Virus record (IMG/VR): IMGVR_UViG_3300031134_000639
Length of the DNA stretch: 64,000 bases
Direction: 5' to 3' (one strand)
DNA from: a virus
Lineage: Duplodnaviria; Heunggongvirae; Uroviricota; Caudoviricetes
Positions 25,897 to 61,757 of this stretch are shown here, piece after piece. How positions within the stretch are numbered: position 1 is the first letter of the stretch; every line of letters starts with the position of its first letter. Position numbers and translations under genes: made by a program. A model generated the notes under the pieces. That model was not told the origin of the DNA. It ran no database searches and worked only from the letters and a program-made list of their open reading frames with translations.

Positions 25897-25908
25897 CCCG
25901 ATAGTAAT
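25897..25908 (+). promoter_or_regulatory. CCCGATAGTAAT conserved intergenic motif (candidate phage promoter), 31 nt upstream of CCA-enzyme ATG
   Basis: Same 11-12-mer recurs upstream of several operon starts (35961, 39736, 45152, 61746). Confidence 0.5.
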
Positions 25909-25938
25909 CATCAAAGACATAGAAAAGAGGGTTCTCCC

Positions 25939-27411
25939 ATGTGCCAACCTCAATCAGAAGGCGGACGCCGTTGCAACGGTCACACACCATACGGTGTTGC
26001 TCGTCGTAATTTGCAAGCCCAAAAGCAATACCATGAGCACCGACTCACTGACAACCAGTTAACCGAGAAGCAGCGAGCTAAAAGTGAGAAAGGCTTAGAA
26101 GAAGCCGTTAACGGTCTCAACGAACTCTCTGAAGAGAAGAAAGCTCTAGGAACAGTCAAGCCGTACGTCATGAACTTGACTCCGAACACAGAGAAAGTAC
26201 TCAACCAGCTGGAAGCAGATGGTTTCACTCCCTACATTGTGGGAGGCTCAGTGCGTGACGTTATCATGGGCTTAGACTCAAAAGATGTTGACATTGAAGT
26301 GTACGGCGGTCAGCCTGAATCCATTGCGAAGTCTCTGAGAAAAATTGGTCACGTTGACGAGGTAGGAAAATCTTTTGGTGTGTTGAAGATTGCCATAGAC
26401 GGTGAAGACTTTGACGTTTCCCTTCCGCGAACTGATTCAAAGATTGGTGACGGGCACAAAGGGTTCTCAGTTGAGGTTAACCCTGACTTGAGTTTAGATG
26501 AAGCCACAGCTCGAAGAGATTACACAATCAACGCTTTGATGTACACTCATAGGCTAGGTTTCATCGTGGATAAGCACGGCGGACTTAAAGACCTTGAGAA
26601 TGGTCAGCTGCGTCACGTCTCGGAAGCTTTTGACGAAGACCCTCTGCGTGTTCTCCGTGGTGTTCAGATGGCATCCCGTTTTGATATGGAAATGCACCCT
26701 GACACGGTTGCTCGTGCACAGAAGCTTAAGTCATCCTTCAACGACTTAGCTACAGAGCGTGTAGCTATTGAGTTTGATAAGCTACATCTCAAAGGCAAGA
26801 ATGCCAGACGTGCATTCAAAGTTCTTCAGGCTACTGGTTGGGATTCTAACTTCCCTGGGTTAGCTGAGATTAATGATGAGAAGCTTCACACTGACTTGTC
26901 CAATGCTCACCATGTTGCTGACCGTGAGAGTCTAGACAACCAGGACAAGACTGTTCTAATCACGTCTATGATTACCTCTAAGATGAATCGCAAGGATCGT
27001 GAGAAGTTCCTAAAGTCAACTGTTATTGGTGAAAAAACACAGGGCATCATTCGTATCCTCAGTGAAACTAACTTACCAGAGAAGCAGGACTCTGCAAGCA
27101 TGCGTTTCTGGGCAGATGACCTAGGTAAAGTAAGTATCCGTAACTACAGTCACATGCTTGAAGCCCAAGGCCGAAAAGATGAAGCAAAAAGCTTGCTAGC
27201 TAAAGCTGAGGCAGTTGGTATTGCTGACCGTGCAGAAGCAGGAATGATTCAAGGTAGAGATGTTATAGCTCGCCATCCTGAAGTTAAAACAGGTCCTTGG
27301 TTAGGGAAAATGCTGAAAGCTGCGTTGCATGATCAGTACAATGAGAAGTTCAGAACACAGAAGCAGGCTGACCAGTGGTTAGCAGATAACATGCCTAAGT
27401 TCTACAACTGA
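25939..27411 (+). CDS. CCA-adding tRNA nucleotidyltransferase / poly(A) polymerase-family enzyme with N-terminal Cys/Arg-rich leader, 490 aa
   Basis: GFTPYIVGGSVRDVIMG...DVDIEVYGG (Pol-beta NT motif), RRDYTINALMY, plus HD-like C-terminal half. N-terminus MCQPQSEGGRRCNGH shares the array leader. Confidence 0.8.
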   Translation: MCQPQSEGGRRCNGHTPYGVARRNLQAQKQYHEHRLTDNQLTEKQRAKSEKGLEEAVNGLNELSEEKKALGTVKPYVMNLTPNTEKVLNQLEADGFTPYIVGGSVRDVIMGLDSKDVDIEVYGGQPESIAKSLRKIGHVDEVGKSFGVLKIAIDGEDFDVSLPRTDSKIGDGHKGFSVEVNPDLSLDEATARRDYTINALMYTHRLGFIVDKHGGLKDLENGQLRHVSEAFDEDPLRVLRGVQMASRFDMEMHPDTVARAQKLKSSFNDLATERVAIEFDKLHLKGKNARRAFKVLQATGWDSNFPGLAEINDEKLHTDLSNAHHVADRESLDNQDKTVLITSMITSKMNRKDREKFLKSTVIGEKTQGIIRILSETNLPEKQDSASMRFWADDLGKVSIRNYSHMLEAQGRKDEAKSLLAKAEAVGIADRAEAGMIQGRDVIARHPEVKTGPWLGKMLKAALHDQYNEKFRTQKQADQWLADNMPKFYN

Positions 27412-27414
27412 CTA

Positions 27415-27460
27415 ACGACTGAGCGCCCCACAGACAAGATTCTGTGGGGCGCTCAGTCGT
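27415..27460. terminator. Hairpin acgactgagcgccccacag-acaagatt-ctgtggggcgctcagtcgt
   Basis: 19-bp perfect inverted repeat. Confidence 0.65.
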
Positions 27461-27876
27461 TGTTGAGGGGCATCTACTGGCCGATACCAGCAGAGACATT
27501 AAAGCTAGGTCCAGACACCTGAATGTCGCTCTGAACAGTGTGATCTACAGGAGCGATTGAGAGTGTGGATGTAGCGATGAGTGTTGCAACACTGGCTTTA
27601 GTGAAGAAAGCAGCAATGATTTCCATGATTGTTTGTTGTCCTTTTCTGTGTTGTTGTTTGTGTTTGTGTGTGTACTCATATTGTACCACATAACACTGTC
27701 AAGAGGAAGAAAAACTTTTCTCAAAAACCTTGATTTTCCGGGGTTTTTGAGGGGATGGAATAAGTTTTTAGGTTTCCTACAACGTAACCTGGAAACTGTT
27801 GTTCAGACTAGTGATAACCACCAAATCTGAAACTAAATTAGAACCTAATCGTATCACATGTGAAAGTAAAAAGGAA

Positions 27877-28809: not shown

Positions 28810-29109
28810 CAGAAAGTTTGGTATACTAGCAGGATGCAAAAAATTCTTATTAACCTAATCCGTAGCTCATTCACTATCGCTTTCATTGGATATGTGACAG
28901 TAGAAGCGTTCTTAACGCGCCACTGAGCTAATCTTTTTTGGCAGGCAACTGACAGCTTTCGTTACTTGTTTGTTATATTTGATATGATTTGATATCAGAA
29001 ACCTACACTGAAATCGTCCCCGGTATCATCCTTAAGATGTACACCGATAGATTAACCTGTCGTTCAAAACGGCCATTCCATCCTCTAACCACATTACATC
29101 TTAGAATTT

Positions 29110-29817: not shown

Positions 29818-29835
29818 AAAAGTTTGCCCAAAAAG

Positions 29836-29865
29836 TTGACAAGCCTTTTTAAGGTGTGTTATAGT
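29836..29865 (+). promoter_or_regulatory. Candidate promoter TTGACA-N18-TATAGT
   Basis: TTGACA 29836..29841 and TATAGT 29860..29865, upstream of ~300 nt without a convincing ORF. Confidence 0.4.
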
Positions 29866-30169
29866 TAACTTATCAGCAGGAACTGACAGCGGAAACATCC
29901 TCTCTGCTACAACCACTTGGTTGCAAGGTTCCAGGTTGAGACCCTAAACTAAAGAGAAACCACTGAGCGAACCTCAAACTTATTATCTAGAGATGTAGCA
30001 GGTGACATAGTTTCGTTGACTTAGTTTAGTCTATTATATGATAAGGTCGGGTAGGATGTACTCGGTCTAAACCTTAAATCGAACACCATTAAAGCCTTTC
30101 AAGGGAACAAATTAGTATTCTAGCTCTAAATTGTTGAGCAGATACTAACAAAAGACTTGGAAGGCTTTT

Positions 30170-30511
30170 TTGTACCCTTTTGCCGATAATTGCTTTGAAA
30201 TGGTCACTCTACTTATACTTCAGATTTTTATCACTCTCATAGCTTTCATGCTGGGAGGGTCAATAGCATCATTTTTAGGTGTGGTCATTGAACGCGCAGG
30301 CCGTAAGGAGCCTATCACAGGTAGAAGCCACTGTGCATGCGGACGTAAACTTGAATGGTATGAGAACATACCCGTGTTCGGCTGGCTACGTGTCGGCGGT
30401 AAAACCAAGTGCTGTAACACCAAGCTCCCTGTATGGTACCTCCTGTTTGAAATTGGCCTAGGGCTAGTCTTCGCAGCTGGAGCATGGTTCGGTCTAGCTT
30501 TACTAGGCTAA
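30170..30511 (+). CDS. Stand-alone prepilin-peptidase N-terminal (PilD/A24 N-domain, tetracysteine) membrane protein, 113 aa
   Basis: GGSIASFLGVVIERAGRKEP...SHCACGRKLEWYENIPVFGWLRVGGKTKCCNTKLPVWYLLFE matches the zinc-binding N-domain of type IV prepilin peptidases. No catalytic C-terminal domain. Confidence 0.6.
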   Translation: MYPFADNCFEMVTLLILQIFITLIAFMLGGSIASFLGVVIERAGRKEPITGRSHCACGRKLEWYENIPVFGWLRVGGKTKCCNTKLPVWYLLFEIGLGLVFAAGAWFGLALLG

Positions 30512-30575
30512 CAATTCTGTTCATCTTGCTAAAAAACTGAGATGAAAAACATTTCTGCGCTAAGCTTAAACCAAT

Positions 30576-31157: not shown

Positions 31158-31180
31158 ACCAAGGAAAGGTAAACCTACGC

Positions 31181-32863: not shown

Positions 32864-32873
32864 AAGACAGCTA

Positions 32874-33652: not shown

Positions 33653-33661
33653 CACAGCGGT

Positions 33662-34008: not shown

Positions 34009-34752
34009 ATGTGTAGAAATAGACCCGGCCCACGCTGTACTGACCATTCCCTTCAGAGCATGAACCGTGCCAGTAGCAAACTTGCGCGCATAAAAGAAGA
34101 AGCAATGAAGCTCATTGAGCGTTTTAACACAGCAAAGCCTGGCTCAAAGACAGCAGAGAACCTGAAAGCTCGTATTGAAGCTAAACAGGATGAGCGCAGA
34201 CAGGCAGCACGAAAGTTTGAAGAAGAGAAGCTTGACTACCAGGCAACACCAGGTGGGCAGGAAGAGCTACGCGCAAAAATTAGTGATGAAGAAACAGACC
34301 CTGAAGAAGCTGAACGTCTGAAAGTTGATTTAGCCGCAGCTGAAGCACGTAGACAATGGCAGAATGACATGAACAAGAAAATTTGTCGTGCCATCCAAGA
34401 AGGCGGTGTCATTAGTGCTGTGCTCATGGTTGAAACAGAACGCCACCTACAGCATGAGCGTCTAGCTGAGATACAAGCTAAACTAATTGAAGCTCAGAAA
34501 GAGAAAGAGCACAACGAAAAAGAGTATAAGACTCCGTTGGGACGCCAGCCTTCAAACGCTATGAGACTGCGACGTAATATTAACCGTGCTCAAAAAACCA
34601 TATACTTCTTCCGTAAGCAGGAGCTACTTATCTCTCTGATGCGTGGAGACTTAGACAGTTACCTTAAACGCCAGATGAAGAGAAAGACTACTAACATGAG
34701 CCGAAAAGCGTTCATGGGTGGAGTCAATGTAGCTACTAAGCTCATCCGCTAA
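34009..34752 (+). CDS. Coiled-coil protein with the N-terminal Cys/Arg leader (MCRNRPGPRCTDH), 247 aa
   Basis: Leader motif plus long K/E/R-rich helical region; no ART domain. Confidence 0.5.
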   Translation: MCRNRPGPRCTDHSLQSMNRASSKLARIKEEAMKLIERFNTAKPGSKTAENLKARIEAKQDERRQAARKFEEEKLDYQATPGGQEELRAKISDEETDPEEAERLKVDLAAAEARRQWQNDMNKKICRAIQEGGVISAVLMVETERHLQHERLAEIQAKLIEAQKEKEHNEKEYKTPLGRQPSNAMRLRRNINRAQKTIYFFRKQELLISLMRGDLDSYLKRQMKRKTTNMSRKAFMGGVNVATKLIR

Positions 34753-34765
34753 CTATCCGATATAG

Positions 34766-35902
34766 TTGCTAAACCAGAAGCCATTATCAGCTGGGCAAGC
34801 TCGTGTTGACACAATAGAACACGTATGCTATTATTGTGATATTAGGTTTTATTATGAAAGTAGGCACAATTTGAGTGAAAAAGATTTAGCTGCTAAGCAG
34901 CGCGGAACCATCCTTGGTCTTGCCTACGGTGACGCCTGGGGATGGATTACTGAGTTCGCTAACTACAAGGAAACTCAGCGCGTTCGACCTGCCTTCCCAG
35001 CTGAAGCTATCGTCACTGACGACACTCAAATGTCCCTCTACGCGATGAACGCCATCCTTAATGATGTGTACCTGCGTAGCTCCAAGATTAAAGCTTTCGA
35101 CGCTGACCGCAGCGAAGCAAATGGTAACGCTGTGCGAATTGAGTTCGCTGAAGCGTTTATCAACTGGTACTACGACGAGGACAACACTCGCGCTCCTGGA
35201 GTGACCTGCATGGAGGCTCTGAAGAAGATTACGCTTCTTGACCTTGAGACTGGCCTTGAGGGAACCAACGAGTGGTCTAAGGGCTGCGGTGCTAACATGC
35301 GTAACCCATGGTTCGGCCTGCTTCCCTACGATGTTGACATGATTGCTGAGTTGAGCGTTATTCAGTCTTCAGTCACCCACAATAACCCTCTGGCTCTTTC
35401 TTCCTCAGCTATCACAGCGTTGGTCGTTCGCGGCCTTGTCAGCGGTGAGGTTACTCCCGGAGACAACAACGTTATGAACTACGCTATTGATATGACTGAG
35501 TACCTGATTCAGAATCCTTTTGATACACTCAACCTTGGTTACATGGATGGTCTGCTTCAGCTTAAAGAGTTCCTTATCGTCCAGAGGGATCTGACTCACG
35601 TACTTGATGACCTCGATGAGTCAACTGATATCTGTCACCTGTTCGGTGAAGGCAAGATTGCTGAGGAAGCACTCGCCCTCGCTATTGTTGCTGTTGACCG
35701 CTACCAGGATGATGTTATGAGCGGATACCGTCGTCTGGTTCACTCCTCAGGAGACACTGACAGTATCGCAGCTATCGCAGGTTCCTTCTTTGGCGCAGCG
35801 TACGGAGATAGTGTGTTCCCCACCGAATGGTTTGACCGTCTAGAGCCTCGCTACCAGAAAGAGCTATCCCTCGTTATCGGGGATGTGCAGGACCTGATCT
35901 AG
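34766..35902 (+). CDS. ADP-ribosylglycohydrolase (ARH/DraG-family); start uncertain (TTG at 34766 or TTG near 34873 preceded by GAAAGTAGG)
   Basis: ILGLAYGDAWGWITEF near the N-terminus, TDDTQMSLY, and C-terminal SGDTDSIAAIAGSFFGAAYG, all typical ARH metal-binding motifs. Confidence 0.7.
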   Translation: MLNQKPLSAGQARVDTIEHVCYYCDIRFYYESRHNLSEKDLAAKQRGTILGLAYGDAWGWITEFANYKETQRVRPAFPAEAIVTDDTQMSLYAMNAILNDVYLRSSKIKAFDADRSEANGNAVRIEFAEAFINWYYDEDNTRAPGVTCMEALKKITLLDLETGLEGTNEWSKGCGANMRNPWFGLLPYDVDMIAELSVIQSSVTHNNPLALSSSAITALVVRGLVSGEVTPGDNNVMNYAIDMTEYLIQNPFDTLNLGYMDGLLQLKEFLIVQRDLTHVLDDLDESTDICHLFGEGKIAEEALALAIVAVDRYQDDVMSGYRRLVHSSGDTDSIAAIAGSFFGAAYGDSVFPTEWFDRLEPRYQKELSLVIGDVQDLI

Positions 35903-35910: not shown

Positions 35911-35958
35911 TGCAAGTAGGGAGGCCACAACAGTAGTGTTGTGGCCTCCCTACTTGCA
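35911..35958. terminator. Perfect 21-bp stem hairpin (tgcaagtagggaggccacaac / gttgtggcctccctacttgca)
   Basis: Inverted repeat directly upstream of the CCGATAGTAAT motif. Confidence 0.7.
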
Positions 35959-35960: not shown

Positions 35961-35974
35961 AAACCGATAGTAAT
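35961..35974 (+). promoter_or_regulatory. AAACCGATAGTAAT motif, 33 nt upstream of the first ART gene
   Basis: Recurring motif; see 25897, 39736, 45152, 61746. Confidence 0.5.
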
Positions 35975-36003: not shown

Positions 36004-36969
36004 ATGTGTCGTACTAAGAAGTCGGGTGGGCGTAGATGCCCTCAACACACGGATCCTGTAAAACATGCCGCATATAATGCTCGTAGGCGAGAACTGTACG
36101 CCGAAAAGAAAGACTCTACAAAAGTTGAGTCTGAAGAATCAATAGTTATAGTAGACCATGATGATTCCGTAGACTATGGCTTCCTCCCATTAGACAAACC
36201 TCGTAAACCGTATAAGTTCTCCTCCAAGCTCGGTAAAACCTTTGCCAAAGATGCTAATGAGTTTGCTAAAGCAATTCAACCTGACTTTGATGTCGAACGT
36301 TGGAGACTCAGAAACATCTACCACGAAAACATTGCAACAGATGACCCAATCTACAATGAAGGTAGATTCGCTTTCCTTGAGTACACAGCGTCCAATTACG
36401 CTCTCATTGGTGTACGTTTGAACGGTAGAAACTTGAGTTCAAAAAGACATGACAATTTCAAGTTGACTAAAGACCAAGAAAATGAGCTTGACCGTAAGAT
36501 TGAGACACTTGATGAGCTTTTTACTAGAATAAGGCAGCCTTCGGAACCACGAACGCTGTATCGTGGCATGCAAGTGCCTGACACCGTAGAGCAAGAGAAC
36601 GTTGACAGCTGGCTAGAGAGTAAGTTCCCTGTAGGTGGTATTGTCTCGCAGAAGAATTATATGTCAACAAGTTTGAACCCTAAGATAGCAGCAGGTTTTT
36701 CCTACAGTGACCATAGTGACCCAAGAAAAGTAGCTCGTGCAGTCATTTTTGAGATAAGAACAACTGAGGGTGCTCCTCTGGGCCATGGAACATCCTCCTA
36801 CAAAGATATTGAAGCGGAAGTCCTCCTTCCACGCGACTTAAAACTGAAAGTTGTCAAACGAGAGACAAGAGCCTCACACACCATTGGATCTTTTTTGAAC
36901 CGAAAAAACCAAGTCAGCATCTCTACAGTAATTCAGTTAGTTGACGTAACAAATGAAGGAAAAATTTAA
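36004..36969 (+). CDS. ADP-ribosyltransferase paralog 1 (leader + variable region + R-S-E ART domain), 321 aa
   Basis: MCRTKKSGGRRCPQHTDPVKHAAYNARRRELYA; LYRGMQVP; YMSTSL; EAEVLLPRD; C-terminal VIQLVDVTNEG. Confidence 0.75.
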   Translation: MCRTKKSGGRRCPQHTDPVKHAAYNARRRELYAEKKDSTKVESEESIVIVDHDDSVDYGFLPLDKPRKPYKFSSKLGKTFAKDANEFAKAIQPDFDVERWRLRNIYHENIATDDPIYNEGRFAFLEYTASNYALIGVRLNGRNLSSKRHDNFKLTKDQENELDRKIETLDELFTRIRQPSEPRTLYRGMQVPDTVEQENVDSWLESKFPVGGIVSQKNYMSTSLNPKIAAGFSYSDHSDPRKVARAVIFEIRTTEGAPLGHGTSSYKDIEAEVLLPRDLKLKVVKRETRASHTIGSFLNRKNQVSISTVIQLVDVTNEGKI

Positions 36970-38731: not shown

Positions 38732-38760
38732 ACTAAGTTCACTCCTATCAGGTTTAAGAC

Positions 38761-38782
38761 AAAACCGATAGATATGAGTAAT
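38761..38782 (+). promoter_or_regulatory. Variant motif AAAACCGATAGATATGAGTAAT (CCGATAG...TAAT with 7-nt insertion)
   Basis: Upstream of ART paralog 4. Confidence 0.35.
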
Positions 38783-38807
38783 ACGTTGTGTGACAAGAAA
38801 GAACTTC

Positions 38808-39698: not shown

Positions 39699-39735
39699 TA
39701 ATAGGTCCAGATAAACCGGTGTCCCCTTAAGATAG

Positions 39736-39750
39736 AAAACCGATAGTAAT
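39736..39750 (+). promoter_or_regulatory. AAAACCGATAGTAAT motif, 34 nt upstream of ART paralog 5
   Basis: Recurring motif. Confidence 0.5.
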
Positions 39751-39779
39751 AATTGGAGTAAACATCTTTTGGAGATAGC

Positions 39780-43283: not shown

Positions 43284-43285
43284 CC

Positions 43286-45135: not shown

Positions 45136-45151
45136 TTTGGATGGGCAGTAG

Positions 45152-45164
45152 CCCCGATAGTAAT
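45152..45164 (+). promoter_or_regulatory. CCCCGATAGTAAT motif, 31 nt upstream of ART paralog 11
   Basis: Recurring motif. Confidence 0.5.
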
Positions 45165-45190
45165 AACTGGAATTAGACTTTGGAGTTAAC

Positions 45191-46787: not shown

Positions 46788-46895
46788 AAGTTTACTGATA
46801 TAGCTGGGAAACAGTCCCCTCAGACTGGCGCTATAAGCCTAGAAAAACCTGGTCAAACCGATATACATGGTACAATAAACAGACACAAATAACCT

Positions 46896-49879: not shown

Positions 49880-49903
49880 TCTGCCCTCACCGATATCACT
49901 AGC

Positions 49904-51715: not shown

Positions 51716-52636
51716 TTAGTCTTCTTCAGGAACGCTTTCCATGAACCTATCTAAAGCACGTTCAGCCGCGTGAGAGTAAACAACCCTGTCACAGGATGCC
51801 TGAATGTTGTTCATATGATCATTAATCCTACGAGTTGTCTCTTCTTTGTCGCTACCTTTGTTAATGTCGTACCGGTCTTCAATGTATGCAAGTTCAAACT
51901 TAGCTTTCTTAGCTTCTTCTATCCCAGACTCTCTTGAAGCATGAATTTCACTTCTGATTGCTTCAGCTTCTTCTTTCAGATTATCAGCATGCTTCAGCCT
52001 TGACTTGTACTCATCCATGGTCAGTTGATACATCTGTGTTGAAGTTGACCTCGTTGAGATAAGAGCGATTCTGGAAACCTCAAAGTGAGGTTTGGCTTCG
52101 TCAGGTCTATCCCCATAACGGCGGTATGGGTCTCCTTGGTCTTCATTTTTTCCAGAAGGCCAATACTCGTAGTATCTGTCAGCTAAAGCATCACGCAAAT
52201 CAATTCTGGCATCGTAGTCGCTACTGCTATTGGACAAAGCCACATAAGTGTCAAGTACACTATCAGGGAACTTGTAATCTAGGTTTTCGTTGCCAAGTTC
52301 GTAAGGGTCAGCATCCAACATGCCGCGTGGACTGTGCTCACCAATTCTCCAGTCCATTGTCTCTCCCATGCGGCTTACCATATCTGATGACTGCTCAAAG
52401 TTACTCATGTCACGACTTTTGCGAGCGGATCCAATGTTGCCAAATGCTTGAGTGTAATCCTGTTTGTCTTGCGCAGCTAAACGGTCTAACTCAATTTCGC
52501 GTTCGATGTCTTCAAGGTTAGAGCGTTCACGGATGTAAGTACTCATATCACCGTCTTTGTAGGCCTGATCAACAAGACCTTTCAGTTCATCACGAGACGC
52601 GAAACGTCCCTGAGAGTCATGGTATGGATTAGGCAT
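51716..52636 (-). CDS. Family-D paralog, hypothetical 306 aa
   Basis: N-terminus MPNPYHDSQGRFASRDELKGLVDQAYKDGDMSTYIRER identical over 38 aa to 52753..53640. Confidence 0.5.
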   Translation of the reverse strand: MPNPYHDSQGRFASRDELKGLVDQAYKDGDMSTYIRERSNLEDIEREIELDRLAAQDKQDYTQAFGNIGSARKSRDMSNFEQSSDMVSRMGETMDWRIGEHSPRGMLDADPYELGNENLDYKFPDSVLDTYVALSNSSSDYDARIDLRDALADRYYEYWPSGKNEDQGDPYRRYGDRPDEAKPHFEVSRIALISTRSTSTQMYQLTMDEYKSRLKHADNLKEEAEAIRSEIHASRESGIEEAKKAKFELAYIEDRYDINKGSDKEETTRRINDHMNNIQASCDRVVYSHAAERALDRFMESVPEED

Positions 52637-52696
52637 AAGTTGTCCTTTTCTGTAAAGCAGGTTGCCTTATGTCTAACGGAAAAGGAGTTAATACAA

Positions 52697-52740
52697 AAAT
52701 GGGCTTTTGCCAGTAAGTTATTACTGGCAAAAGCCCATTT
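52697..52740. terminator. Perfect hairpin aaatgggcttttgccagtaa-gttat-tactggcaaaagcccattt
   Basis: Inverted repeat between the two family-D genes. Confidence 0.65.
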
Positions 52741-52752
52741 GATAGTCTTTTA

Positions 52753-53640
52753 CTATTCTTGGGAAGACATATAACGGTCAATAGCTCGCTCAGCTGCGTG
52801 AGAGTAGATAACAGAATCATGGGCAGTTTGGATATTGCACATCTGAGAATTAATTCGTGCCTCTGTTCCTCCAGCTGGGTCATCGTTAGCTAAAGTAAAC
52901 TGGTCTTCAAGATATGCAAGCTCAAATTTGGATTTCTTTAAGGTTTCCAAATTCTCAGTTCTTGAAGCACGCACTTCTTCACGAATTGCTTCTGCCTCTG
53001 TCTCAAGATTGTCAGCATGTTTTAGACGTGCTCTATACTCGCTCATTTGGTTGGCGTAATCTACTGTTGCTTCACGGCGGGCAACTACAAGACTGTTTGG
53101 GTTTATCTCAAAGCTAGGAGAATCATCCTCGGAGAAGCCAGCCTCTACCTTATCTTTTTCAATAGGCCAATACTGCAAACTGTTGTTCATAACAGAGTTA
53201 AAATCAATTGTTCGGTCGTAGTGGCTAGTGCTGTTAGACAAAGCTACGTAAGAGTCAAGTATTTCATCAGAGAATGCATATTTCTCTTCAGAGTCACCCG
53301 CACGGTAAGGATCAGCGTCTTCCATTTCATAAGGGCTTAGCTCACCTATACTCCAGTCCATTGTTGTGCCAACGCGAGAATCAGCTTCGGAGGCCCTTTC
53401 AAAAGTACTCATGTCTCTATTTTTAGGAGTAGATGCACTTGCTTTAGAGAAAATGCCAGAAGATTCTGTAGAACCAGCCGCTAGGCGCTCTCGTTCAATC
53501 TCTCGTTCAATCTCTTCAAGATTGGCGCGCTCACGGATGTAAGTGCTCATATCACCGTCTTTGTAGGCCTGATCAACAAGACCTTTCAGTTCGTCACGAG
53601 ACGCAAAACGTCCCTGAGAGTCATGGTATGGATTAGGCAT
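52753..53640 (-). CDS. Family-D paralog, hypothetical 295 aa
   Basis: See 51716..52636. Confidence 0.5.
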   Translation of the reverse strand: MPNPYHDSQGRFASRDELKGLVDQAYKDGDMSTYIRERANLEEIEREIERERLAAGSTESSGIFSKASASTPKNRDMSTFERASEADSRVGTTMDWSIGELSPYEMEDADPYRAGDSEEKYAFSDEILDSYVALSNSTSHYDRTIDFNSVMNNSLQYWPIEKDKVEAGFSEDDSPSFEINPNSLVVARREATVDYANQMSEYRARLKHADNLETEAEAIREEVRASRTENLETLKKSKFELAYLEDQFTLANDDPAGGTEARINSQMCNIQTAHDSVIYSHAAERAIDRYMSSQE

Positions 53641-53687
53641 AAGTTGTCCTTTTCTTGAAGGTAAGTTAGTTTATGTCTAACGGAGAA

Positions 53688-53915
53688 TCAGTTGATGCTT
53701 CGGATGATGATAACGTCAGTGATAGGTCCAAATGTGGGTCGGTCATGGTCCCAATTTTTGACTTCATCATAATCATATAGAGGCTGGTTGTCTTCAGTGT
53801 AACCAGCTGGCTGCGGAAAACCAGGCTGTTTGATGTTGAAGAATGTTCCGTTGAAACCCCAGTTGGTTTTGAAACCAATCTCCTCAATCGTATAAAGTTT
53901 CGGTGTAGTACTCAT
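53688..53915 (-). CDS. Small hypothetical protein ~75 aa
   Basis: Internal Met chosen as start; weak RBS. Confidence 0.3.
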   Translation of the reverse strand: MSTTPKLYTIEEIGFKTNWGFNGTFFNIKQPGFPQPAGYTEDNQPLYDYDEVKNWDHDRPTFGPITDVIIIRSIN

Positions 53916-54051
53916 ATTGCTTTCTTGTAGGGTTGAAGTAATAACTATACTACAGATATCGGAAAGACATAGAACAGTTGGTAAGGCAAAGCCAAGCTGC
54001 ACAGCAACTTCGCAGCTGGCATAACGAACACCACCGCCGATATCAAATTCT

Positions 54052-54714: not shown

Positions 54715-56745
54715 ATGATTGTAACCCGCGAAGATTACCTCCAGGCTGTTAACCAGGCAACCATTGCCCGTGACGTTTACTACAAGACTGGCGAGGACTC
54801 AGGCCTCACAGACACTGAGTACGACTCCCTTCTTGACGAGATTCAGCTTGTCGGTGACACCAACGGTTGGACTGAAGGTAACGCTCTCATCGGTGAGGTC
54901 GCCGGTGGTATTGAAGTGTCCGGTGACGTTCAGCACACCGTGCGAATGCTCTCCCTCGGGAAGGTCCAGAGCCTCAATGACGTTGACTCCTTCGTAGCAA
55001 CCGTCCCCGGTGGTGTTGTGCTGGAGCCTAAGCTTGATGGTATTGCCCTCAGTGTCAAGTACGTCAACGGCAAGATTGCTCAGGTCGCTACACGAGGTGA
55101 CTCCCGCTCCGGCGAGAACCTGACCGAGAAGGCCCTCATCACCAAGTTCCGTGGACTCCCCCACACTCTTCCCACCAATGAGACCATTGAGGTTCGTGGT
55201 GAGGCTTTCATCAGCGCCAGCGACTTCGTTGCCACCCAGGCTGGCCGTTTCGCCGCCACGGGTGAGAAGTTCTCCAACTCTCGTAATGCTGTCTCTGGAA
55301 TCCTCCGCACCAGCAAAGACACCAGTTACGCCACCATCACTTTCGGAGCATACGAGGTCATCGGCTACGACAATGACAGCTACTCACAGCGCATGAAGCA
55401 CCTCGCAACGCTTGGTTTCGCTCCTGCAATGACTTTCATGCCCGCTGACATTCTGACAGCCAAGATTCCTCTCAGCGAGAAGATTGAGCGTTTCGGTAAC
55501 ATCCGCGAGAAGAACGACGCACCCACTGATGGTGTTGTGGTCAAGGCTGACAGCGAGAAGACCCGTAAGAGCATGGGTGAGGGAAGCCGTCACCCCAAGT
55601 GGGCTGTTGCATTCAAGTTTGAGGCTGAGCAGGCTGCTACCGTACTCAACGGTGTCCAGCGTGAGGTTGGTAAGACCGGAAACGTTTCTTACGTTGCCCA
55701 GCTTACACCTGTTGAAGTTGACGGGTCAGTTGTCTCCAAGGCGACTCTGAACAACGCAACCTTCATCAACAAGCTTGACCTGCACATTGGTGACACTGTC
55801 ATCATCCGCAAGGCCAACGATATCATCCCCGAGATTGTTTCCGTTGACCTTGCCCTGCGACCTGAGAGCGCTGTGAAGTACGATGCTCCCACAACCTGTC
55901 CCAAGTGCGGCAACGACCTTGACACTGCCTCCTCTGTTATCTGGAAGTGCCACAACCCTGACTGTGCTGCCCTCAACAAGGTCGTCTACGCTGTGTCACG
56001 AGACATTCTTGACGTTGACAACCTCTCAACAGCCATCATTGAGCGTCTGTTCGCTGGGAACCTAATTCAGGACACAGGTGACCTTTTCATGCTCACAGAG
56101 AAGCAGCTTGCGGGCCTAGTCATGTCCTACAGCAAAGACAAGACTGGCAAGACCATCATTCCTCTGAAGGCCCAGTACCTTGGTGAAAAGATGGCCGCGA
56201 AAATTTATGGAAACCTCCAGACTTCCAAGAATCAGGATCTTAACCGAATCATCAGTGCCCTCGGTATCCGCATGACAGGCCGCACGTTCGGTCGTCGTCT
56301 TGCGAAGCACTTCGGTTCCATGCAGAAGCTTCAGGCTGCAACCATCAACGATCTACTTGAAGTTGAAGGTATCGCCATTGGCCGTGCAGAGGTAATCCAC
56401 GCTGGCATCCAGAACGCCCGACCGCTCATTACCAAGCTCTACAACGCTGGCTTCACCGCGCTCGACGAGAAGAACTCCCAGGAAACTCTAAAGAAGGCAG
56501 AAGCTTCATCCACCGATAAACTAAAGGGACTGAACGTTGTCGTCACCGGAACTGTTGAAGGTTACAGCCGTAACCAGCTGACAGAGCTAGTGGAGTCAAA
56601 CGGTGGTCACGCTTCATCCTCTGTCAGCAGCAAGACAGACCTTGTTGTTCTAGGTGAGAAAGCAGGGTCCAAGAAAGCCAAAGCTGAGTCCCTGGGAGTG
56701 AAGACCATGCCCGCAGATGCGTTCATCACATGGATTACAAAATAG
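54715..56745 (+). CDS. ligA: NAD-dependent DNA ligase LigA
   Basis: Adenylation motif EPKLDGIALSVKY, OB/Zn-finger/HhH region and C-terminal BRCT; 676 aa. Confidence 0.9.
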   Translation: MIVTREDYLQAVNQATIARDVYYKTGEDSGLTDTEYDSLLDEIQLVGDTNGWTEGNALIGEVAGGIEVSGDVQHTVRMLSLGKVQSLNDVDSFVATVPGGVVLEPKLDGIALSVKYVNGKIAQVATRGDSRSGENLTEKALITKFRGLPHTLPTNETIEVRGEAFISASDFVATQAGRFAATGEKFSNSRNAVSGILRTSKDTSYATITFGAYEVIGYDNDSYSQRMKHLATLGFAPAMTFMPADILTAKIPLSEKIERFGNIREKNDAPTDGVVVKADSEKTRKSMGEGSRHPKWAVAFKFEAEQAATVLNGVQREVGKTGNVSYVAQLTPVEVDGSVVSKATLNNATFINKLDLHIGDTVIIRKANDIIPEIVSVDLALRPESAVKYDAPTTCPKCGNDLDTASSVIWKCHNPDCAALNKVVYAVSRDILDVDNLSTAIIERLFAGNLIQDTGDLFMLTEKQLAGLVMSYSKDKTGKTIIPLKAQYLGEKMAAKIYGNLQTSKNQDLNRIISALGIRMTGRTFGRRLAKHFGSMQKLQAATINDLLEVEGIAIGRAEVIHAGIQNARPLITKLYNAGFTALDEKNSQETLKKAEASSTDKLKGLNVVVTGTVEGYSRNQLTELVESNGGHASSSVSSKTDLVVLGEKAGSKKAKAESLGVKTMPADAFITWITK

Positions 56746-56775
56746 CACCACACAAGCATTAGGAGTACCAACCGC

Positions 56776-57492
56776 ATGTCAGAAATACTAAGCAACAGCA
56801 ACTACTCACCTGATGTTGAGACCAGCTGGAACAGAATCCCAGTTGGTCTCGACGTCACCGGCGAAACACTACTGTGGGATATCCAAAGAAAAGCTGATGC
56901 GCTTATCAGCGGTAGAAACGGGGCAGGGAAGACAACGTTTCTGCTCATGCTGGAGGAACACTTCAGGAAACACCCTAACATGTGGAAATCAGAGTTAGTC
57001 ACAATTGCCCCACAGGATATCCCTGACACCTACACAGGTTCCATCACATCAGATATTGCTCAGATAGCGGAGAAGATAGAAGAAATTCGCAACCTAGTTG
57101 ACGACCGTTTAACCTCCAGTGCAAGCGGTGACGAAGGCCACCTAGCATTGATGGTAGATGAAGCCTACTACCTGTTGACAGCAACAAACTTTGTCAAAGG
57201 AAATAAGACAGTAGACAACATTACAAGGAACCTGGAAACCATCGCAGTACATGGTGATACAGTAGGGGTGCATCTTATCCTGACAACACAGAAACCAGAC
57301 GTTAACGTGTTCACGCACAAGCTACGAGATAACCTCTCGCTACGAATTGGCTTCGCTAAAATGGACAGGAAATCTTCTCTCCTTAGTATCAACAGTGCAT
57401 CTGGAACAACAACACCAGATACACCCGGAGTTGGACTCATCCTACTAAACAACAGCACCACGCTGTTCAAAGCATTCAAGCCCAAAGAATAA
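56776..57492 (+). CDS. FtsK/SpoIIIE-family P-loop ATPase (minimal motor domain), 238 aa
   Basis: Walker A ISGRNGAGKTT, Walker B LMVDEAYYL, FtsK-like GVHLILTTQKPDVNVFT. Confidence 0.6.
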   Translation: MSEILSNSNYSPDVETSWNRIPVGLDVTGETLLWDIQRKADALISGRNGAGKTTFLLMLEEHFRKHPNMWKSELVTIAPQDIPDTYTGSITSDIAQIAEKIEEIRNLVDDRLTSSASGDEGHLALMVDEAYYLLTATNFVKGNKTVDNITRNLETIAVHGDTVGVHLILTTQKPDVNVFTHKLRDNLSLRIGFAKMDRKSSLLSINSASGTTTPDTPGVGLILLNNSTTLFKAFKPKE

Positions 57493-57555
57493 AATAGAAC
57501 ACCAAACATGAACAATTCAACCTAGAACAATAAACCACTACAGAAAGCAGCAAAA

Positions 57556-57912
57556 ATGTCAACGTCAACACGATTTGATGAACTACGGAAACTTGATGGC
57601 GACTGGTCACAGTTCGTAAAGGATGCAGGCAAACTAGACCCAGCAGCTATTGATCTTGCTGAGGACGTATACAACAAAATTGTTGCACTGCGAATGCCTA
57701 ACCCTGGCGTGTTCCCTGACTCCGAAACAAAAGGTGTCCGACTGGAGTGGCTAACTGAGAACTCTCACCTTGTTCTTGCCTTTGACGGTGAAACCCCGGA
57801 GGACTCGTTCTTCTCCTACTACGATGAGGGAACCCAAGACCGCAAGTTCGTTGACCTGGTAGACACCAGAACAACTCTTGACCTTCTCATGGACAAATTC
57901 AAACGGAGTTGA
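57556..57912 (+). CDS. Hypothetical protein 118 aa
   Basis: ORF only. Confidence 0.4.
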   Translation: MSTSTRFDELRKLDGDWSQFVKDAGKLDPAAIDLAEDVYNKIVALRMPNPGVFPDSETKGVRLEWLTENSHLVLAFDGETPEDSFFSYYDEGTQDRKFVDLVDTRTTLDLLMDKFKRS

Positions 57913-57924
57913 CAATAATTTCAA

Positions 57925-57978
57925 ACTAAGATAAGCTTTACAGGTAGCGCAACAGCTGCCCGTAAAGCTTATCTTAGT
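57925..57978. terminator. Perfect 19-bp stem hairpin (aaactaagataagctttac / gtaaagcttatcttagttt) with 16-nt loop
   Basis: Inverted repeat upstream of the family-E triplet. Confidence 0.55.
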
Positions 57979-57990
57979 TTAGGAGACAAA

Positions 57991-58890
57991 ATGGCTGACC
58001 AGACTGACCACCCTGACCTCTATGAGACAGAGCACTACAGCGTACCCTTCATCAAGAAGAACGTCAGGAACATCAGGAACAAGGTCATCAGCAAGGAACC
58101 TTACACAGCTGAGGAGCTTGCCTCGGCGCATGATGGCTTCGTCCAGATCCAAGGCCTGTTTGCTGAGTTCGGTTGGGCCGACCAGGTTAGCTTTGCTCAG
58201 CCTGACACATACTCCCGCGTTGCCAACATCACCTTCAAGCCGTTCACCGAGTTCACAAACTCCCTCGCACCGCTCATCATTGAGTTCGGTCGCGCTGACG
58301 AGAAGAAGCATGACCAGAGTCAGGTATTTTCGTGGATGCGTAATGATATTGAGTACTACCGTACTATGGAAGCTGCGCGAGTCCGCAAATCTCACCTGGC
58401 TTTTGCTACCTTCCACCTTCAGCAGGGTATCATGACGGCTTTGCCCATCAAAGACCTTCCCCTGCTCAACAGTGCAATTGAAGCAGCCATCAAAGAGGAC
58501 TCAGCCCATAAGCTTGCTGGCGGTCGCACTACAGTCGACACTTTCGTGTCCATCATGCATGAGACCCACAGGTTCCTTATTAGGGAGCTTCAGGAGGGTG
58601 GCTTTGAGGTAACACCCCACAACACTCTCGCACTCATGCTGGGCCATATTGCCAACTCCAAGAACCTTCAGACGCGCGCTCAGCAGGGTGACGTAACTAT
58701 CACTCGCGCTGAGTACATGGAATTTATCACCAACGGTGTAAATATCAGCAAAGCGCTTCTCTACGTTTCACCTCTGCTATCCGCTGCTGCTCTTCCTAGT
58801 GCACAGATGGTCAAAGAAGCCGGTGACATGCCCTTCGCTTGGTTCATGAAAATCAACCAGGGATTTGACACCCCCGCAGAAATCAAGTAA
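57991..58890 (+). CDS. Family-E paralog, hypothetical 299 aa
   Basis: ETEHYSVPFIKK...EYMEFITNGVNISKALLYVSPL...MPFAWFMK shared with the next two genes. Confidence 0.5.
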   Translation: MADQTDHPDLYETEHYSVPFIKKNVRNIRNKVISKEPYTAEELASAHDGFVQIQGLFAEFGWADQVSFAQPDTYSRVANITFKPFTEFTNSLAPLIIEFGRADEKKHDQSQVFSWMRNDIEYYRTMEAARVRKSHLAFATFHLQQGIMTALPIKDLPLLNSAIEAAIKEDSAHKLAGGRTTVDTFVSIMHETHRFLIRELQEGGFEVTPHNTLALMLGHIANSKNLQTRAQQGDVTITRAEYMEFITNGVNISKALLYVSPLLSAAALPSAQMVKEAGDMPFAWFMKINQGFDTPAEIK

Positions 58891-58920
58891 GCTTACTTAA
58901 GACAAGAAAGGAACCCCGTA

Positions 58921-59784
58921 ATGTATACAGAAAATGCTATCCAGTACTTCACCACCGAACATTACAGTGTTCCCTACCTCACTAAAGCTGGGCAAGGTAG
59001 AAACGTGAACGATAGAAAAGCCAGCTACTCTGACGCTGAGCTTGAGGCAGCCCACAAAGAGTACGTCAGGCTTCTTGATGCTCTTAAGGAAATTGGGTGG
59101 AGTAACACTGTAAAGCTTGTGCAGCCTGAGCAGAAGCAGCATGCTCGTATCGCAGAGTTCCAGTTCTCTGAGTACAAGCAGTTCCTTACGGAGCTAGCTC
59201 AGGCTGCGCTGACATACGGTTTCCCTGATAAAAGAGCACAGACTGAGAATCGGGCTTACCACTACTACACGAACAGTAACTCACGGTACCAGGTAGAAGT
59301 AGCAAGTAACATTGCCCCATTCAATTTCCACCTTCAGTCAGGTCGTGTAAGCAACATGGCATTCACTATTCCTGCGGTTGGAGCAGCCTGGAGTCCCGCC
59401 GCCAGGACAAAGGCTGACAATCCTAAGCCCGCCAGTGACTGCACTGTAGACGAGTTCATTGAAGGTATCCCCACTTTCAACAAAACCCTCAGCCAGCAGC
59501 TAGAACAGCAGGGGTACGAACCCACGACCTACAACATCCTTGCCCTCTTCCTCGGACTTTTCGCCGCGAAAAGAGACCTAGCAAACGTGGGGCACACTGA
59601 CCTTGTTCCTCAGGAGAAGACTGCACCAAAAGAATACATGGAGTTCATCACCAACGGAATCCCAATCAGCAAAGCCCTCCTCTATGTTTCACCTTTGTTC
59701 CCCAAAAAAAACATGCCCACACTGGAGACCGTCCAGGGTACAGAAGGTATGCCATTTGAATGGTTCATGAAGCTTCACTACTGA
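58921..59784 (+). CDS. Family-E paralog, hypothetical 287 aa
   Basis: TTEHYSVPYLTK...EYMEFITNGIPISKALLYVSPL...MPFEWFMK. Confidence 0.5.
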   Translation: MYTENAIQYFTTEHYSVPYLTKAGQGRNVNDRKASYSDAELEAAHKEYVRLLDALKEIGWSNTVKLVQPEQKQHARIAEFQFSEYKQFLTELAQAALTYGFPDKRAQTENRAYHYYTNSNSRYQVEVASNIAPFNFHLQSGRVSNMAFTIPAVGAAWSPAARTKADNPKPASDCTVDEFIEGIPTFNKTLSQQLEQQGYEPTTYNILALFLGLFAAKRDLANVGHTDLVPQEKTAPKEYMEFITNGIPISKALLYVSPLFPKKNMPTLETVQGTEGMPFEWFMKLHY

Positions 59785-59806
59785 TACTAGACCAAAGGAA
59801 ACTAAA

Positions 59807-60667
59807 ATGGGACACGACTACACCCTAGAAAGCATGCACACAACACCGGCATACACGGTGCCGCATGCTCGCACCCTAAAGCCGGAGGAGCTAACCCAGA
59901 ATCCACTGCCGAAAGAGTTTTTCTACTCCGCTAAGCAGCTGGACACTGTATACAGCCAGTATCTGGAGCTTGTGAAAATGCTGGAAGCATCAGAGTGGGC
60001 AGGCTACGTTAAGCTTGAACAAAAAGGTAGAATGATGAACATTGTGTTCCCCGCCTATCAGAAGCTAGCTGAAGAGTTGAACAAGTCACAGCCGACCCTG
60101 GAAAGTAAAACTGTATTCGGTTACACTGCGAAGAAGAACTACCAAATTTCAAGCAGCATTCTGGGAAGCTTCCACCTGCAAAAAGGTCACCTTGTGAACA
60201 TTGCTCTCCAGGCAAACCCTTTCATTGCAGAGCACATGGATGAGAATGCAACCCGAAAAGGGATCACGACACTAGAGGGCTACAAGAAGTTCATTACCAA
60301 GTCAACACGCACCATCAAGAAGGAACTCCTTCACCGACACATCCCCGTTAATGGATACACAATCACAACACTGCTTCAAGCTAAGCTTGGATACAGCATA
60401 GGAACCATCCAGGGACGGCTTGAAGAAGGCAGAAGCCCGATTGGAAGATTGATTATCGTGAAGAACAGAAAAGACAAGGTCACTGAAAAAGTCTACGATC
60501 ATCTGAAAGCTCAGACGCCAACAGAGAAAGTCCTCAGATACTGTTCAGTCTTGTACTCCCACACTCATGCGGTAGGCCCCGAGTACATAGACATTGTAGA
60601 CGATGTGCCGCTAGATTGGTACCTTAAAATGGCTAAGCCAGAAGGCGATGCCATAGCAATGTACTAA
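59807..60667 (+). CDS. Family-E paralog (divergent), hypothetical 286 aa
   Basis: TPAYTVPHART...VLRYCSVLYS...VPLDWYLK; same length and layout. Confidence 0.45.
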   Translation: MGHDYTLESMHTTPAYTVPHARTLKPEELTQNPLPKEFFYSAKQLDTVYSQYLELVKMLEASEWAGYVKLEQKGRMMNIVFPAYQKLAEELNKSQPTLESKTVFGYTAKKNYQISSSILGSFHLQKGHLVNIALQANPFIAEHMDENATRKGITTLEGYKKFITKSTRTIKKELLHRHIPVNGYTITTLLQAKLGYSIGTIQGRLEEGRSPIGRLIIVKNRKDKVTEKVYDHLKAQTPTEKVLRYCSVLYSHTHAVGPEYIDIVDDVPLDWYLKMAKPEGDAIAMY

Positions 60668-61453
60668 TCAGCCAATAACACGTTGTTTAGCGGCAGCAAG
60701 CTCAGCTTCAGTAAGAATACCGCTTTTAAACAAACGGTCTAACCTTTCAAGCTGACCTGCAATATCATCAGACGCCCCACCAGTATTAGCTGACTGGGGT
60801 TTCTGTGTTTGTGGGACAGAGAAAAGAGGACCCTGAGAGGCAGGTTCCTTAGGAAGAGTCTCGCTAGCAGGTTGAGGCTGAGCCGGGAAGCTACCAGTCT
60901 GAGGAAAACGAGGTGGAACGAACCCTGAACTACCAGGAGCGTTACCGAACTGGTTCTGCTGCTGAGGAGCGAACCCAGAGAACCCCTGAGAAGCCGCAGG
61001 TGGCTGCTGGAAGCCCTGAGATGGCTGTGGACCTCCACCGTTACCACCCCACCCTGTACCACGCTTACCGGCGCGCTCACGGATTAAGCCAACAAGTCTT
61101 TTACCTGTGTTAGCAGGCACCTTAGTGATAGTAGCCTGGCTGCCATCGCTGAACAGCACAATGTCTCCAAACAGAATGCGAGATTGCCATTCAACACTGG
61201 AGATACTATAGAAGGGGAAATCCTGAGTGGTCTTCTTAAACCAACCGTCTTTCAGGAAGAACACGCGCTCATTAGTCAAAACGATGACGCCCCGTCCGTT
61301 GCTGTACTTGCCAGAGCAGATAGCTTCAACTTGCTCCCCACCGTGCAGGTAAGTAACCAGAAGCCTAAGCTCGCGGTTGCTACCAAAAGTAATCATCATG
61401 CGCTTCTTCGCAGCAGCGATATCTTCTCTCAGAGGAGCCATAACAACAATCAT
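60668..61453 (-). CDS. Bacterial PH-like domain + Gly/Pro/Gln-rich linker + C-terminal SHOCT-domain protein, 261 aa
   Basis: N-terminal ...GRGVIVLTNERVFFLKDGWFK... (bPH-like); linker GTGWGGNGGGPQPSQGFQQPP; C-terminal LDRLFKSGILTEAELAAAKQRVIG (SHOCT-like). Confidence 0.45.
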   Translation of the reverse strand: MIVVMAPLREDIAAAKKRMMITFGSNRELRLLVTYLHGGEQVEAICSGKYSNGRGVIVLTNERVFFLKDGWFKKTTQDFPFYSISSVEWQSRILFGDIVLFSDGSQATITKVPANTGKRLVGLIRERAGKRGTGWGGNGGGPQPSQGFQQPPAASQGFSGFAPQQQNQFGNAPGSSGFVPPRFPQTGSFPAQPQPASETLPKEPASQGPLFSVPQTQKPQSANTGGASDDIAGQLERLDRLFKSGILTEAELAAAKQRVIG

Positions 61454-61639
61454 CTTTCAACTAGAAATTATTCTTATACTCTATCGGAGAACACTGAGAA
61501 CATGAAAAACCCAGGTCAGCAAGCAACCTGAGTTCACTCAAGTCTGCCGCCGAAAAAAAGATCAAACTTTTTTGGAAAAAATTTCCACCGAAACCCAGCA
61601 ACAGCGTGTACCCCGAAAACCAAAAACACTACTAAACGC

Positions 61640-61710
61640 CCCAAAAACCGTAAAAAACACACCAAAATGCCTCCAAAATGCAATAAAATAGCAAAAACTG
61701 CTCTATACAC
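61640..61710. repeat. Phased A-tract array (6-7 A4-6 tracts at ~10-11 bp spacing) within a ~320-nt AC-rich non-coding region
   Basis: ccccaaaaaccg-taaaaaac-acaccaaaatg-cctccaaaatg-caataaaata-gcaaaaactg; A-tract centres ~61645, 61655, 61666, 61677, 61687, 61695. Confidence 0.55.
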
Positions 61711-61745
61711 GCAATAAAACGCTATACCCAATAAACTAAAACGCT

Positions 61746-61757
61746 GCCGATAGTAAT
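61746..61757 (+). promoter_or_regulatory. GCCGATAGTAAT motif upstream of nrdHIE
   Basis: Recurring motif; ~125 nt upstream of the nrdH ATG. Confidence 0.4.

Follow-up and report, generated by a model that had tools for sequence, protein, structure and literature searches.

The recurrent 11-mer and its CCGATA core

The window analysed here is a 64,000-nt stretch of DNA (IMG/VR virus record IMGVR_UViG_3300031134_000639, Caudoviricetes) from what we call a huge phage-like element. Its genes encode 13 ADP-ribosyltransferase (ART) paralogs, an ADP-ribosylglycohydrolase, a CCA-adding enzyme, RadA, LigA, ThyX, NrdHI, an RNA ligase and an NlpC/P60 protein. Many further proteins have no family match, and the gene content is typical of very large phages. 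Within this window the 11-mer CCGATAGTAAT occurs in five exact copies, all on the plus strand, compared with 0.02 expected from dinucleotide-preserving shuffles (none of 100 reached five), which bears out the recurrent motif reported in a preliminary description of this DNA. The copies, an insertion variant and the two strongest hairpins beside them are listed below.

25898..25908, plus strand: exact CCGATAGTAAT, 30 nt 5′ of the CCA-adding enzyme ATG (25939); Shine–Dalgarno (SD) sequence AGAGGG; predicted transcription start site (TSS) near 25912
35964..35974, plus strand: exact CCGATAGTAAT, 29 nt 5′ of the ART paralog 1 ATG (36004)
38765..38782, plus strand: variant CCGATAG-ATATGAG-TAAT before ART paralog 4, whose start is probably ATG 38808 (MCRPKE...)
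39740..39750, plus strand: exact CCGATAGTAAT, 29 nt 5′ of the ART paralog 5 ATG (39780)
45154..45164, plus strand: exact CCGATAGTAAT, 26 nt 5′ of the ART paralog 11 ATG (45191)
61747..61757, plus strand: exact CCGATAGTAAT, 124 nt 5′ of nrdH (61882-62121, 79 aa by metagenome gene calls)
25853..25894, plus strand: hairpin with a 16-bp stem and no T-tail, ending 3 nt 5′ of the 25898 motif and occupying the place of a -35 box
35911..35958, plus strand: hairpin with a 22-bp stem and no T-tail, ending 5 nt 5′ of the 35964 motif

The five copies lie 1-4 nt above the positions first given for them (25897, 35961, 39736, 45152 and 61746), and the insertion variant is likewise real but starts at 38765 rather than 38761. 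A distance of ~31-36 nt to the gene start had been proposed; measured between the last base of the 11-mer and the ATG, four copies lie at 26-30 nt, the nrdH copy lies at 124 nt, and a second class of sites at 8-12 nt is described below. An SD sequence is present between the 11-mer and the ATG for the CCA enzyme and for ART paralogs 1, 5 and 11, and the copy at 61747 is preceded by TG, giving TGCCGATAG. The proposal that every copy marks the head of a transcription unit holds in the ART array, where the motif is found in all four inter-gene gaps of at least 55 nt and in none of the seven coupled or near-coupled junctions. The reported placement directly after terminator hairpins applies to 25898 and 35964, and loosely to a core site at 25140, but not to 38765, 39740, 45154, 46858 or 61747; specifically, no strong hairpin was found just upstream of the other three exact copies. 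Across their 30-nt flanks the five copies resemble one another only as much as random 30-mers do, which makes the 11-mer an island of conservation rather than a piece of a duplicated block.

The part of the motif that carries information is CCGATA, and not the TAGTAAT segment that had been likened to a -10 element. This is evident from orthologous footprints and from a 63%-GC relative, both of which display GCCGATAA, and the core matches the -10 element of sigma-28/FliA/SigD promoters rather than a TATAAT-like box. CCGATA occurs 23 times in the window (11.5 expected), with ~17 occurrences in non-coding DNA, which makes up roughly 11% of the sequence. Restricting the motif to CCGATA[G/T] leaves 14 sites, every one of them intergenic and facing the downstream gene, with none in the ~89% of the window that is coding. 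In a profile anchored on the core, a weak N-W-W-A-T extension (the GTAAT tail) is seen downstream, and the core is most often followed by G; the strongly conserved length is thus 6-8 nt, followed by a weak 4-nt extension. The 11-mer CCGATAGTAAT is the best-matching form of CCGATAnWWAT, with the consensus (G)CCGATA-N-W-W-A-T. The remaining core sites in the window are as follows.

30182..30189, plus strand: GCCGATAA, core 11 nt 5′ of ATG 30200 of a prepilin-peptidase-N-like gene; no SD; candidate leaderless gene
49890..49896, plus strand: CCGATAT, core 8 nt 5′ of ATG 49904; no SD; candidate leaderless gene
54037..54043, plus strand: CCGATAT, core 9 nt 5′ of ATG 54052; no SD; candidate leaderless gene
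25140..25146, plus strand: CCGATAT, core ~33 nt 5′ of the open reading frame (ORF) at 25179, after a T-tailed hairpin (25090-25121)
24820..24826, plus strand: CCGATAC, core 34 nt 5′ of ATG 24860, overlapping a TGnTACAAC extended -10-like box
29044..29050, plus strand: CCGATAG, core 60 nt 5′ of the NlpC/P60 gene (29110)
34757..34763, plus strand: CCGATAT, core 108 nt 5′ of the ADP-ribosylglycohydrolase start (34871), with a sigma-70-type site (34806-34834) between
46858..46864, plus strand: CCGATAT before radA, overlapping a perfect extended -10 box, TGGTACAAT; may be a dual promoter
53957..53962, minus strand: CCGATA(T), 69 nt 5′ of the gene 53887..53666, followed by TATAGT
61482..61487, minus strand: CCGATA(G), 28-40 nt 5′ of the bPH_3/SHOCT gene (60668-61453 or 60668-61441)
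21663..21668, minus strand: CCGATA(A), 87 nt 5′ of the PGDYG gene (21575..21114); a weaker candidate

The looser relatives of the motif that had been listed earlier all exist, at 24820, 46858, 34757, 49890 (not 49881) and 54037, slightly displaced from the positions first assigned to them, and the letters at 34757 are CCGATATA and not CCGATATC. Several gene starts in this region probably need revision. The first in-frame starts at 30170 (a called TTG), 38790, 34766 and 61756 are probably wrong, and orthology, paralogy of the MCR... N terminus and metagenome gene calls favour 30200, 38808, 34871 and 61882, respectively.

Two further observations concern individual sites. A T-tailed hairpin carries a CCGATA in its loop (24640-24645, minus strand), 42 nt 5′ of the SD-led ATG 24597 (minus strand); this site is ambiguous and may be a promoter inside a terminator. 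Separately, 24820-24845 and 46858-46885 share a longer sequence, ACCGATA(C/TA)CATG(T/G)TACAA(C/T)AAAC, in which the core overlaps an extended -10 box, TGnTACAAT, and these two sites may be dual promoters for two sigma factors.

Conservation in relatives and comparison with controls

Seven relatives (L216-L222) were examined over ~21 kb around the CCA gene in each; CCA-enzyme identity is 38-58%, GC content ranges from 36 to 63%, and the contigs span 35-812 kb. Together with the window and its left flank they form a pooled set of 225 kb. CCGATA occurs 86 times in this set, and 62 of these occurrences are intergenic although intergenic DNA accounts for 12% of bases (binomial p = 5e-38). Orientation is similarly biased, with 59 of the 62 intergenic sites pointing at the beginning of a gene and not at its end (p = 9e-15), and the 24 coding occurrences are divided evenly between sense and antisense (12 each), as expected of background. 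The pattern is seen in each of the seven relatives. When all hexamers are ranked by intergenic fraction, CCGATA comes first, and most of the runners-up are its one-base shifts.

For comparison with other genomes, the clade and the controls were scored with one crude ORF caller. By this measure 61% of CCGATA in the clade falls within the 9.9% of DNA that is non-coding, whereas no enrichment was found in distant CCA-carrying phages (7% of CCGATA in 6.9% non-coding DNA), in 80 GTDB loci (9% in 7.4%) or in 120 random loci (6% in 6.7%). A scan of IMG/VR for CCA enzymes returned only relatives at 45% identity or less, and these were without the motif. Exact 15-mer matches in IMG/VR (AAAACCGATAGTAAT; ~120 single matches) were also considered, and the CCGATA[GT]-dense loci among them proved to be chance matches in coding regions.

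Conservation is also apparent at individual genes. The prepilin-peptidase-N-like genes of the window, L216 and L218 can be aligned from Met1 (59-69% identity), and upstream of these three orthologs GCCGATAA is the sole invariant block; the core is followed by 9-11 unconserved nucleotides and then the ATG. CCGATA likewise lies upstream of the CCA orthologs in L216, L221 and L222, and in the CCA leaders of the window, L216 and L221 CCGATA(G/T)T is kept while the flanks have diverged. In the 63%-GC relative L222, nine of ten sites read GCCGATA, and one CCGATA in this genome lies 35 nt 5′ of a tRNA gene (tRNA-Thr), which argues for a transcriptional rather than a translational signal.

Other features of these loci were recorded alongside the core. 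A second block, GACATAGAAAA, is found in the CCA leaders 11-15 nt 3′ of the core (25921-25931 in the window, ~9990 in L216, ~9977 in L221); it lies just past the predicted start site and is kept in these three diverged genomes. L222, an 812-kb contig, carries 15 tRNA genes in 21 kb by the CCA enzyme (228-12830), with CCGATA sites interspersed. In L221, a near-identical repeat of ~50 nt at 15281-15330 and 16698-16747, AATAATGCGTTkGGTTACACAGAmGGTAACCCGATAAC..., is annotated as intergenic; it resembles unannotated Rhs/toxin-type coding repeats, and its CCGATA is probably no promoter.

A probable -10-like element and the rival readings

Distances from the core to annotated starts are bimodal, with one class at 8-12 nt, another at about 24-46 nt, and the interval of 13-23 nt nearly empty. 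The short class holds ten sites (four at 8 nt and two at 9 nt; mode 8), all of which lead to an ATG and none of which has an SD-like sequence. The longer class is broad, with about two dozen sites, and an SD sequence is found at 13 of the 18 sites that lie 14-50 nt from a start. Two such spacing classes are predicted for a -10 element, in which case the mRNA would either be leaderless or carry a leader long enough for an SD sequence.

With respect to known promoters, the closest resemblance is to those of sigma-28 (FliA/SigD/WhiG, group 3; TAAA(GTTT)-N11-15-GCCGATA(A/T)), for which a general family consensus of TAAA-N15-CCGATAT has been described (PMC3720852). In the solved open complex of Pseudomonas aeruginosa sigma-28, the fliC -10 element is positioned as (-15)GCCGATAA(-8) and its -11 A is flipped out (PMC12784957), a geometry that places the TSS 8 nt after CCGATA. 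The -10 core here, CCGATA[T/A], is identical: the hexamer itself is invariant by construction, and GCCGATAA is invariant in the three orthologs, with GCCGATA at nine of ten sites in the high-GC relative. Moreover, the predicted 8-nt distance to the TSS equals the modal distance to SD-less ATGs, so the 8-12 nt class fits leaderless mRNAs; the genes at 30200, 49904 and 54052 are those in the window that fit this class. We consider it probable that CCGATA is the -10 element of a -35-independent, sigma-28-like promoter class specific to this huge phage-like family. As for the earlier idea of a phage-specific promoter, what stands is an element-specific, -35-less signal distinct from sigma-70-type promoters; the phage sigma factor or RNA polymerase (RNAP) gene that would complete it was not found in 235 kb.

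By analogy with sigma-28, CCGATA would span -14 to -9, with its central A as the base flipped out at -11 and a transcription start 8-9 nt past its last A. Two types of transcription unit would result. One would have a 5′ leader of ~15-40 nt with an SD sequence, as for the CCA enzyme, the heads of the ART sub-operons and, with a longer leader, nrdHIE; the other would yield leaderless mRNAs beginning at or within a few nucleotides of the AUG (30200, 49904, 54052). The recogniser, whether element-encoded or borrowed from the host, could be a sigma factor of the element, a re-tooled host sigma of the FliA/WhiG type, or a non-canonical RNAP. It is also conceivable, as speculation, that the many ADP-ribosyltransferases modify the RNAP.

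A consistent -35 box is missing, as had been noted from the outset: no column upstream of the core exceeds 0.21 bits, and at 25898 and 35964 hairpins sit at the -35 position. The lack of a canonical -35 box gives a '-10 only' architecture like that of T4 late promoters. The CCGATAGTAAT signal probably works like a sigma-28 -10 element but is not counted here as a member of that promoter family, since the defining -35 box is missing; it also differs in the base after the core, mostly G here, and in its use, at ~1 site per 3.6 kb before DNA-metabolism, ART, tRNA-related and uncharacterised genes rather than in a small motility regulon. Two other readings were rejected. CCGATA as a -35 box was ruled out by the lack of anything conserved at +17 to +30 and by SD-less ATGs that lie too near, and an upstream GTTA/GGTT element was ruled out by its variable spacing.

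Housekeeping promoters are distinguishable from these sites. Neither a TTGACA nor a TATAAT hexamer of the sigma-70/sigma-A type emerges in the profile around CCGATA. Sigma-70-type promoters (TTGACA-N17-TATAAT or TGn extended -10, TGnTATAAT) are found in other intergenic regions, mostly within 1-20 kb, a part of the window with no intergenic CCGATA, and three core sites (24820, 46858 and 53962) additionally overlap a -10-like box. The element thus appears, from the arrangement of these motifs, to use two promoter classes.

Single-element promoters have precedent in phages. T4 late promoters consist of one short -10-region element, TATAAATA, with no -35, and are read by gp55 together with gp33 and the sliding clamp. 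The signal described here is likewise a single -10-type element and is likewise restricted to a mobile element's own genes, although CCGATAnWWAT is unrelated in sequence to TATAAATA, and no gp55- or gp33-like protein was seen in the Pfam/PHROG annotation of the loci. The late promoters of SPO1, which belong to a phage-encoded sigma-family system (gp33/34), combine CGTTAGA at -35 with GATATT at -10; the latter overlaps sites of the CCGATAT(T) type, but SPO1 has a defined -35 and our sites do not. A promoter for a single-subunit, T7-like RNAP would be a block of ~17-23 bp (-17 to +6), whereas only 6-8 nt are strongly conserved here and the flanks of the exact copies are at random identity. The leaderless promoters of Actinobacteria and Deinococcus, in which the -10 lies ~7 nt before the AUG, share the short fixed distance of a -10-type box to an SD-less start that is always ATG; they differ in using the housekeeping TANNNT box in place of CCGATA. 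Our literature search returned no report of a CCGATA-type motif in phages.

Several observations weigh against a sigma-28-like promoter. Searches of the window and of the ~235 kb of clade DNA, an amount well under half of one genome, turned up no gene for a sigma-family protein, a gp55-like protein or an RNAP, and likewise no FliA-like gene or anti-sigma; of the 625-kb genome itself, less than 15% was covered. These searches comprised the Pfam annotation of the fetched loci, direct Pfam searches of unannotated window proteins, and phmmer/HMM searches against 868 ORF segments with FliA, RpoE and RpoD as queries. The canonical sigma-28 -35 is absent as well, with TAAA at N14-17 in 4 of 58 sites. 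The arrangement CCGATA-N8-12-ATG is not significant in the window alone (three occurrences against 0.92 expected; 7 of 100 shuffles reach three), and the weight of the leaderless class lies in the pooled data and orthology rather than in the window count. In addition, the annotated start is 60-145 nt away from several sites, and not every gene start is certain; TSS positions and leaderless status are predictions from sequence, and the phage nature of the element is itself likely rather than established. Two candidates for the sigma factor were rejected, namely an 89-aa ORF (17373-17642), which is at most a weak ribbon-helix-helix protein, and a nine-member paralog family that has no sigma-like features. 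Sigma-encoding megaphages are known, for example phage G (PMC12484599).

Alternatively, CCGATA could be an asymmetric operator for a DNA-binding regulator. Mycobacteriophage L5 stoperators, which are asymmetric, repressor-bound sites of 13-14 bp in short intergenic regions, are oriented with transcription and block or tune elongation rather than initiation. Together with the start-associated sequences of Cluster K phages, they share with our motif its recurrence, asymmetry, intergenic location and orientation with transcription in phage genomes. An operator of this kind would suit a short, orientation-biased site that in some cases overlaps a sigma-70-type -10 box (46858, 53962, 24820), and it would sit easily with a cognate sigma not found in ~235 kb. 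We nonetheless regard it as unlikely. The tight spacing of 8-12 nt to SD-less ATGs and the empty gap at 13-23 nt are not predicted for an operator, and at SD-less genes 8 nt from the core there is no space for another -10 box. Furthermore, a known -10 element has exactly this core and a TSS geometry that matches, and only 6-8 nt are conserved here, with promoter-like spacing, compared with the 13-14 bp of the repressor-bound stoperators or the translation-associated sequences of Cluster K.

A role in RNA, as an endonuclease processing site or 5′-end determinant, or as a non-SD ribosome-recruiting element at the 8-12 nt genes, would explain why the signal is strand-specific and why the motif follows hairpins that could protect upstream 3′ ends, and the 8-12 nt spacing does resemble that between an SD sequence and its start codon. 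Such a role is very unlikely, however, given that for most sites the start is 24-145 nt away and has its own SD, that one site precedes a tRNA gene, and that no Rfam match was found; CCGAUA is also not complementary to the anti-SD sequence. Finally, the copies could be functionless, having arisen by chance or been carried along by tandem duplication of the ART and other MCR-tagged genes, since the genes downstream of four of the five exact copies are paralogs that start MCR..GGRRC. This explanation is effectively refuted. Flank identity is at the random level, the motif is missing before coupled paralogs, and the nrdH copy and about 12 more sites precede unrelated genes; in addition, seven diverged genomes keep the motif and the controls do not, and the chance expectation for the exact copies is 0.02.

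The element, its neighbouring features and what the signal would mean

Exact-protein lookup places the window at ~478-542 kb of a 624,949-bp ENA contig (ERZ27247443 k141_624373), and it is also present on a 663,129-bp JGI contig (3300031088 Ga0308157_10000032); the same-contig copies from three sources are 100% identical and therefore uninformative. Megablast with 21 kb gave no match among GenBank phages, tblastn with LigA gave only matches of ~30%, and a scan of IMG/VR with an ART protein returned no match. Homologs of the CCA enzyme at 40-60% identity occur on contigs of up to ~1 Mb, and GTDB species genomes gave scattered matches only (~28-48%). We refer to a huge phage-like element because the clade DNA read showed no gene for a capsid or terminase. 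There are weak hints of an actinobacterial-type host, namely DUF2637/phrog_733, a sub-threshold 'Actinobacterial Holin-X' match, the leaderless genes and the 63%-GC relative. The window yielded no tRNAs in a tRNA scan and no Rfam matches.

An N-terminal module, MCRx(2-5)GGRRCPxH[TS][DN]P...NARRR, heads the 13 ART paralogs, the CCA-adding enzyme and one further protein. Its M1, C2, R11 and C12 are invariant in the relatives' CCA homologs, and a metagenome scan with the 37-aa MCR tag found at least one locus (2.6 kb). The module may represent a Cys/His knuckle, or else a tag for targeting or packaging. The genes that carry it are located as follows.

36004-46054: MCR-module genes
18778-19686, minus strand: MCR-module gene
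48324-49181: MCR-module gene
25939-27411: MCR-module gene (CCA-adding enzyme)
34009-34752: MCR-module gene

Upstream of nrdH, the predicted 121-nt leader (61761-61881) contains a hairpin (61787-61815) followed by U8 (61814-61821). It looks like an attenuator or riboswitch, although it has no Rfam match and a fold z-score of only -1.3. The sequence GCAATAAAA is repeated at 61680 and 61711, with a variant at 61728, upstream of the nrdH promoter. The surrounding region, 56000-64000, is unlike the rest of the window in that its plus strand is strongly A-rich with C>G (AT skew <=0.35, GC skew to -0.21).

Other paralog groups were also noted. At 310-13157 (minus strand) lie nine paralogs of ~190-225 aa that share the blocks EDGGLTLxDGxTY, FPVKAR and WSExAQE and have no Pfam/PHROG match; the intergenic DNA of this region holds sigma-70-type promoters and hairpin terminators. 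Three tandem paralogs of ~290 aa (57991-60667) and two of ~300 aa (51716-53640, minus strand), the latter each after the same AAGTTGTCCTTTTCT leader, have no family match.

The transcription programmes of huge uncultivated phages are almost unknown, as there are neither hosts nor experiments, and a clade-wide signal lets transcription units be drawn on these genomes. The motif corrects gene starts (e.g. 30200, 38808), predicts a set of leaderless genes, and separates host-type (sigma-70-like) from element-specific promoter regions. For metatranscriptomes, the prediction is that 5′ ends should fall 8-9 nt after CCGATA. The motif also provides a target for finding the factor, a sigma that would read GCCGATAA without a -35.

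A broader proposal, which we find possible but on balance doubtful, is that a lineage of uncultivated 0.2-0.8 Mb phage-like elements (GC 36-63%), without close kin in GTDB, IMG/VR or GenBank phages, transcribes the majority of its non-early genes from a promoter that is independent of a -35 box and has the flagellar-sigma box GCCGATAA as its -10. If this were true, it would imply either a new element-encoded sigma of the group 3 lineage that has lost -35 reading or a captured and re-tooled host sigma of the FliA/WhiG type, a capture perhaps aided by the many ADP-ribosyltransferases, with frequent leaderless mRNAs in the programme. Should the recogniser be a captured or re-tooled flagellar-type sigma, it would represent a new route of host takeover.

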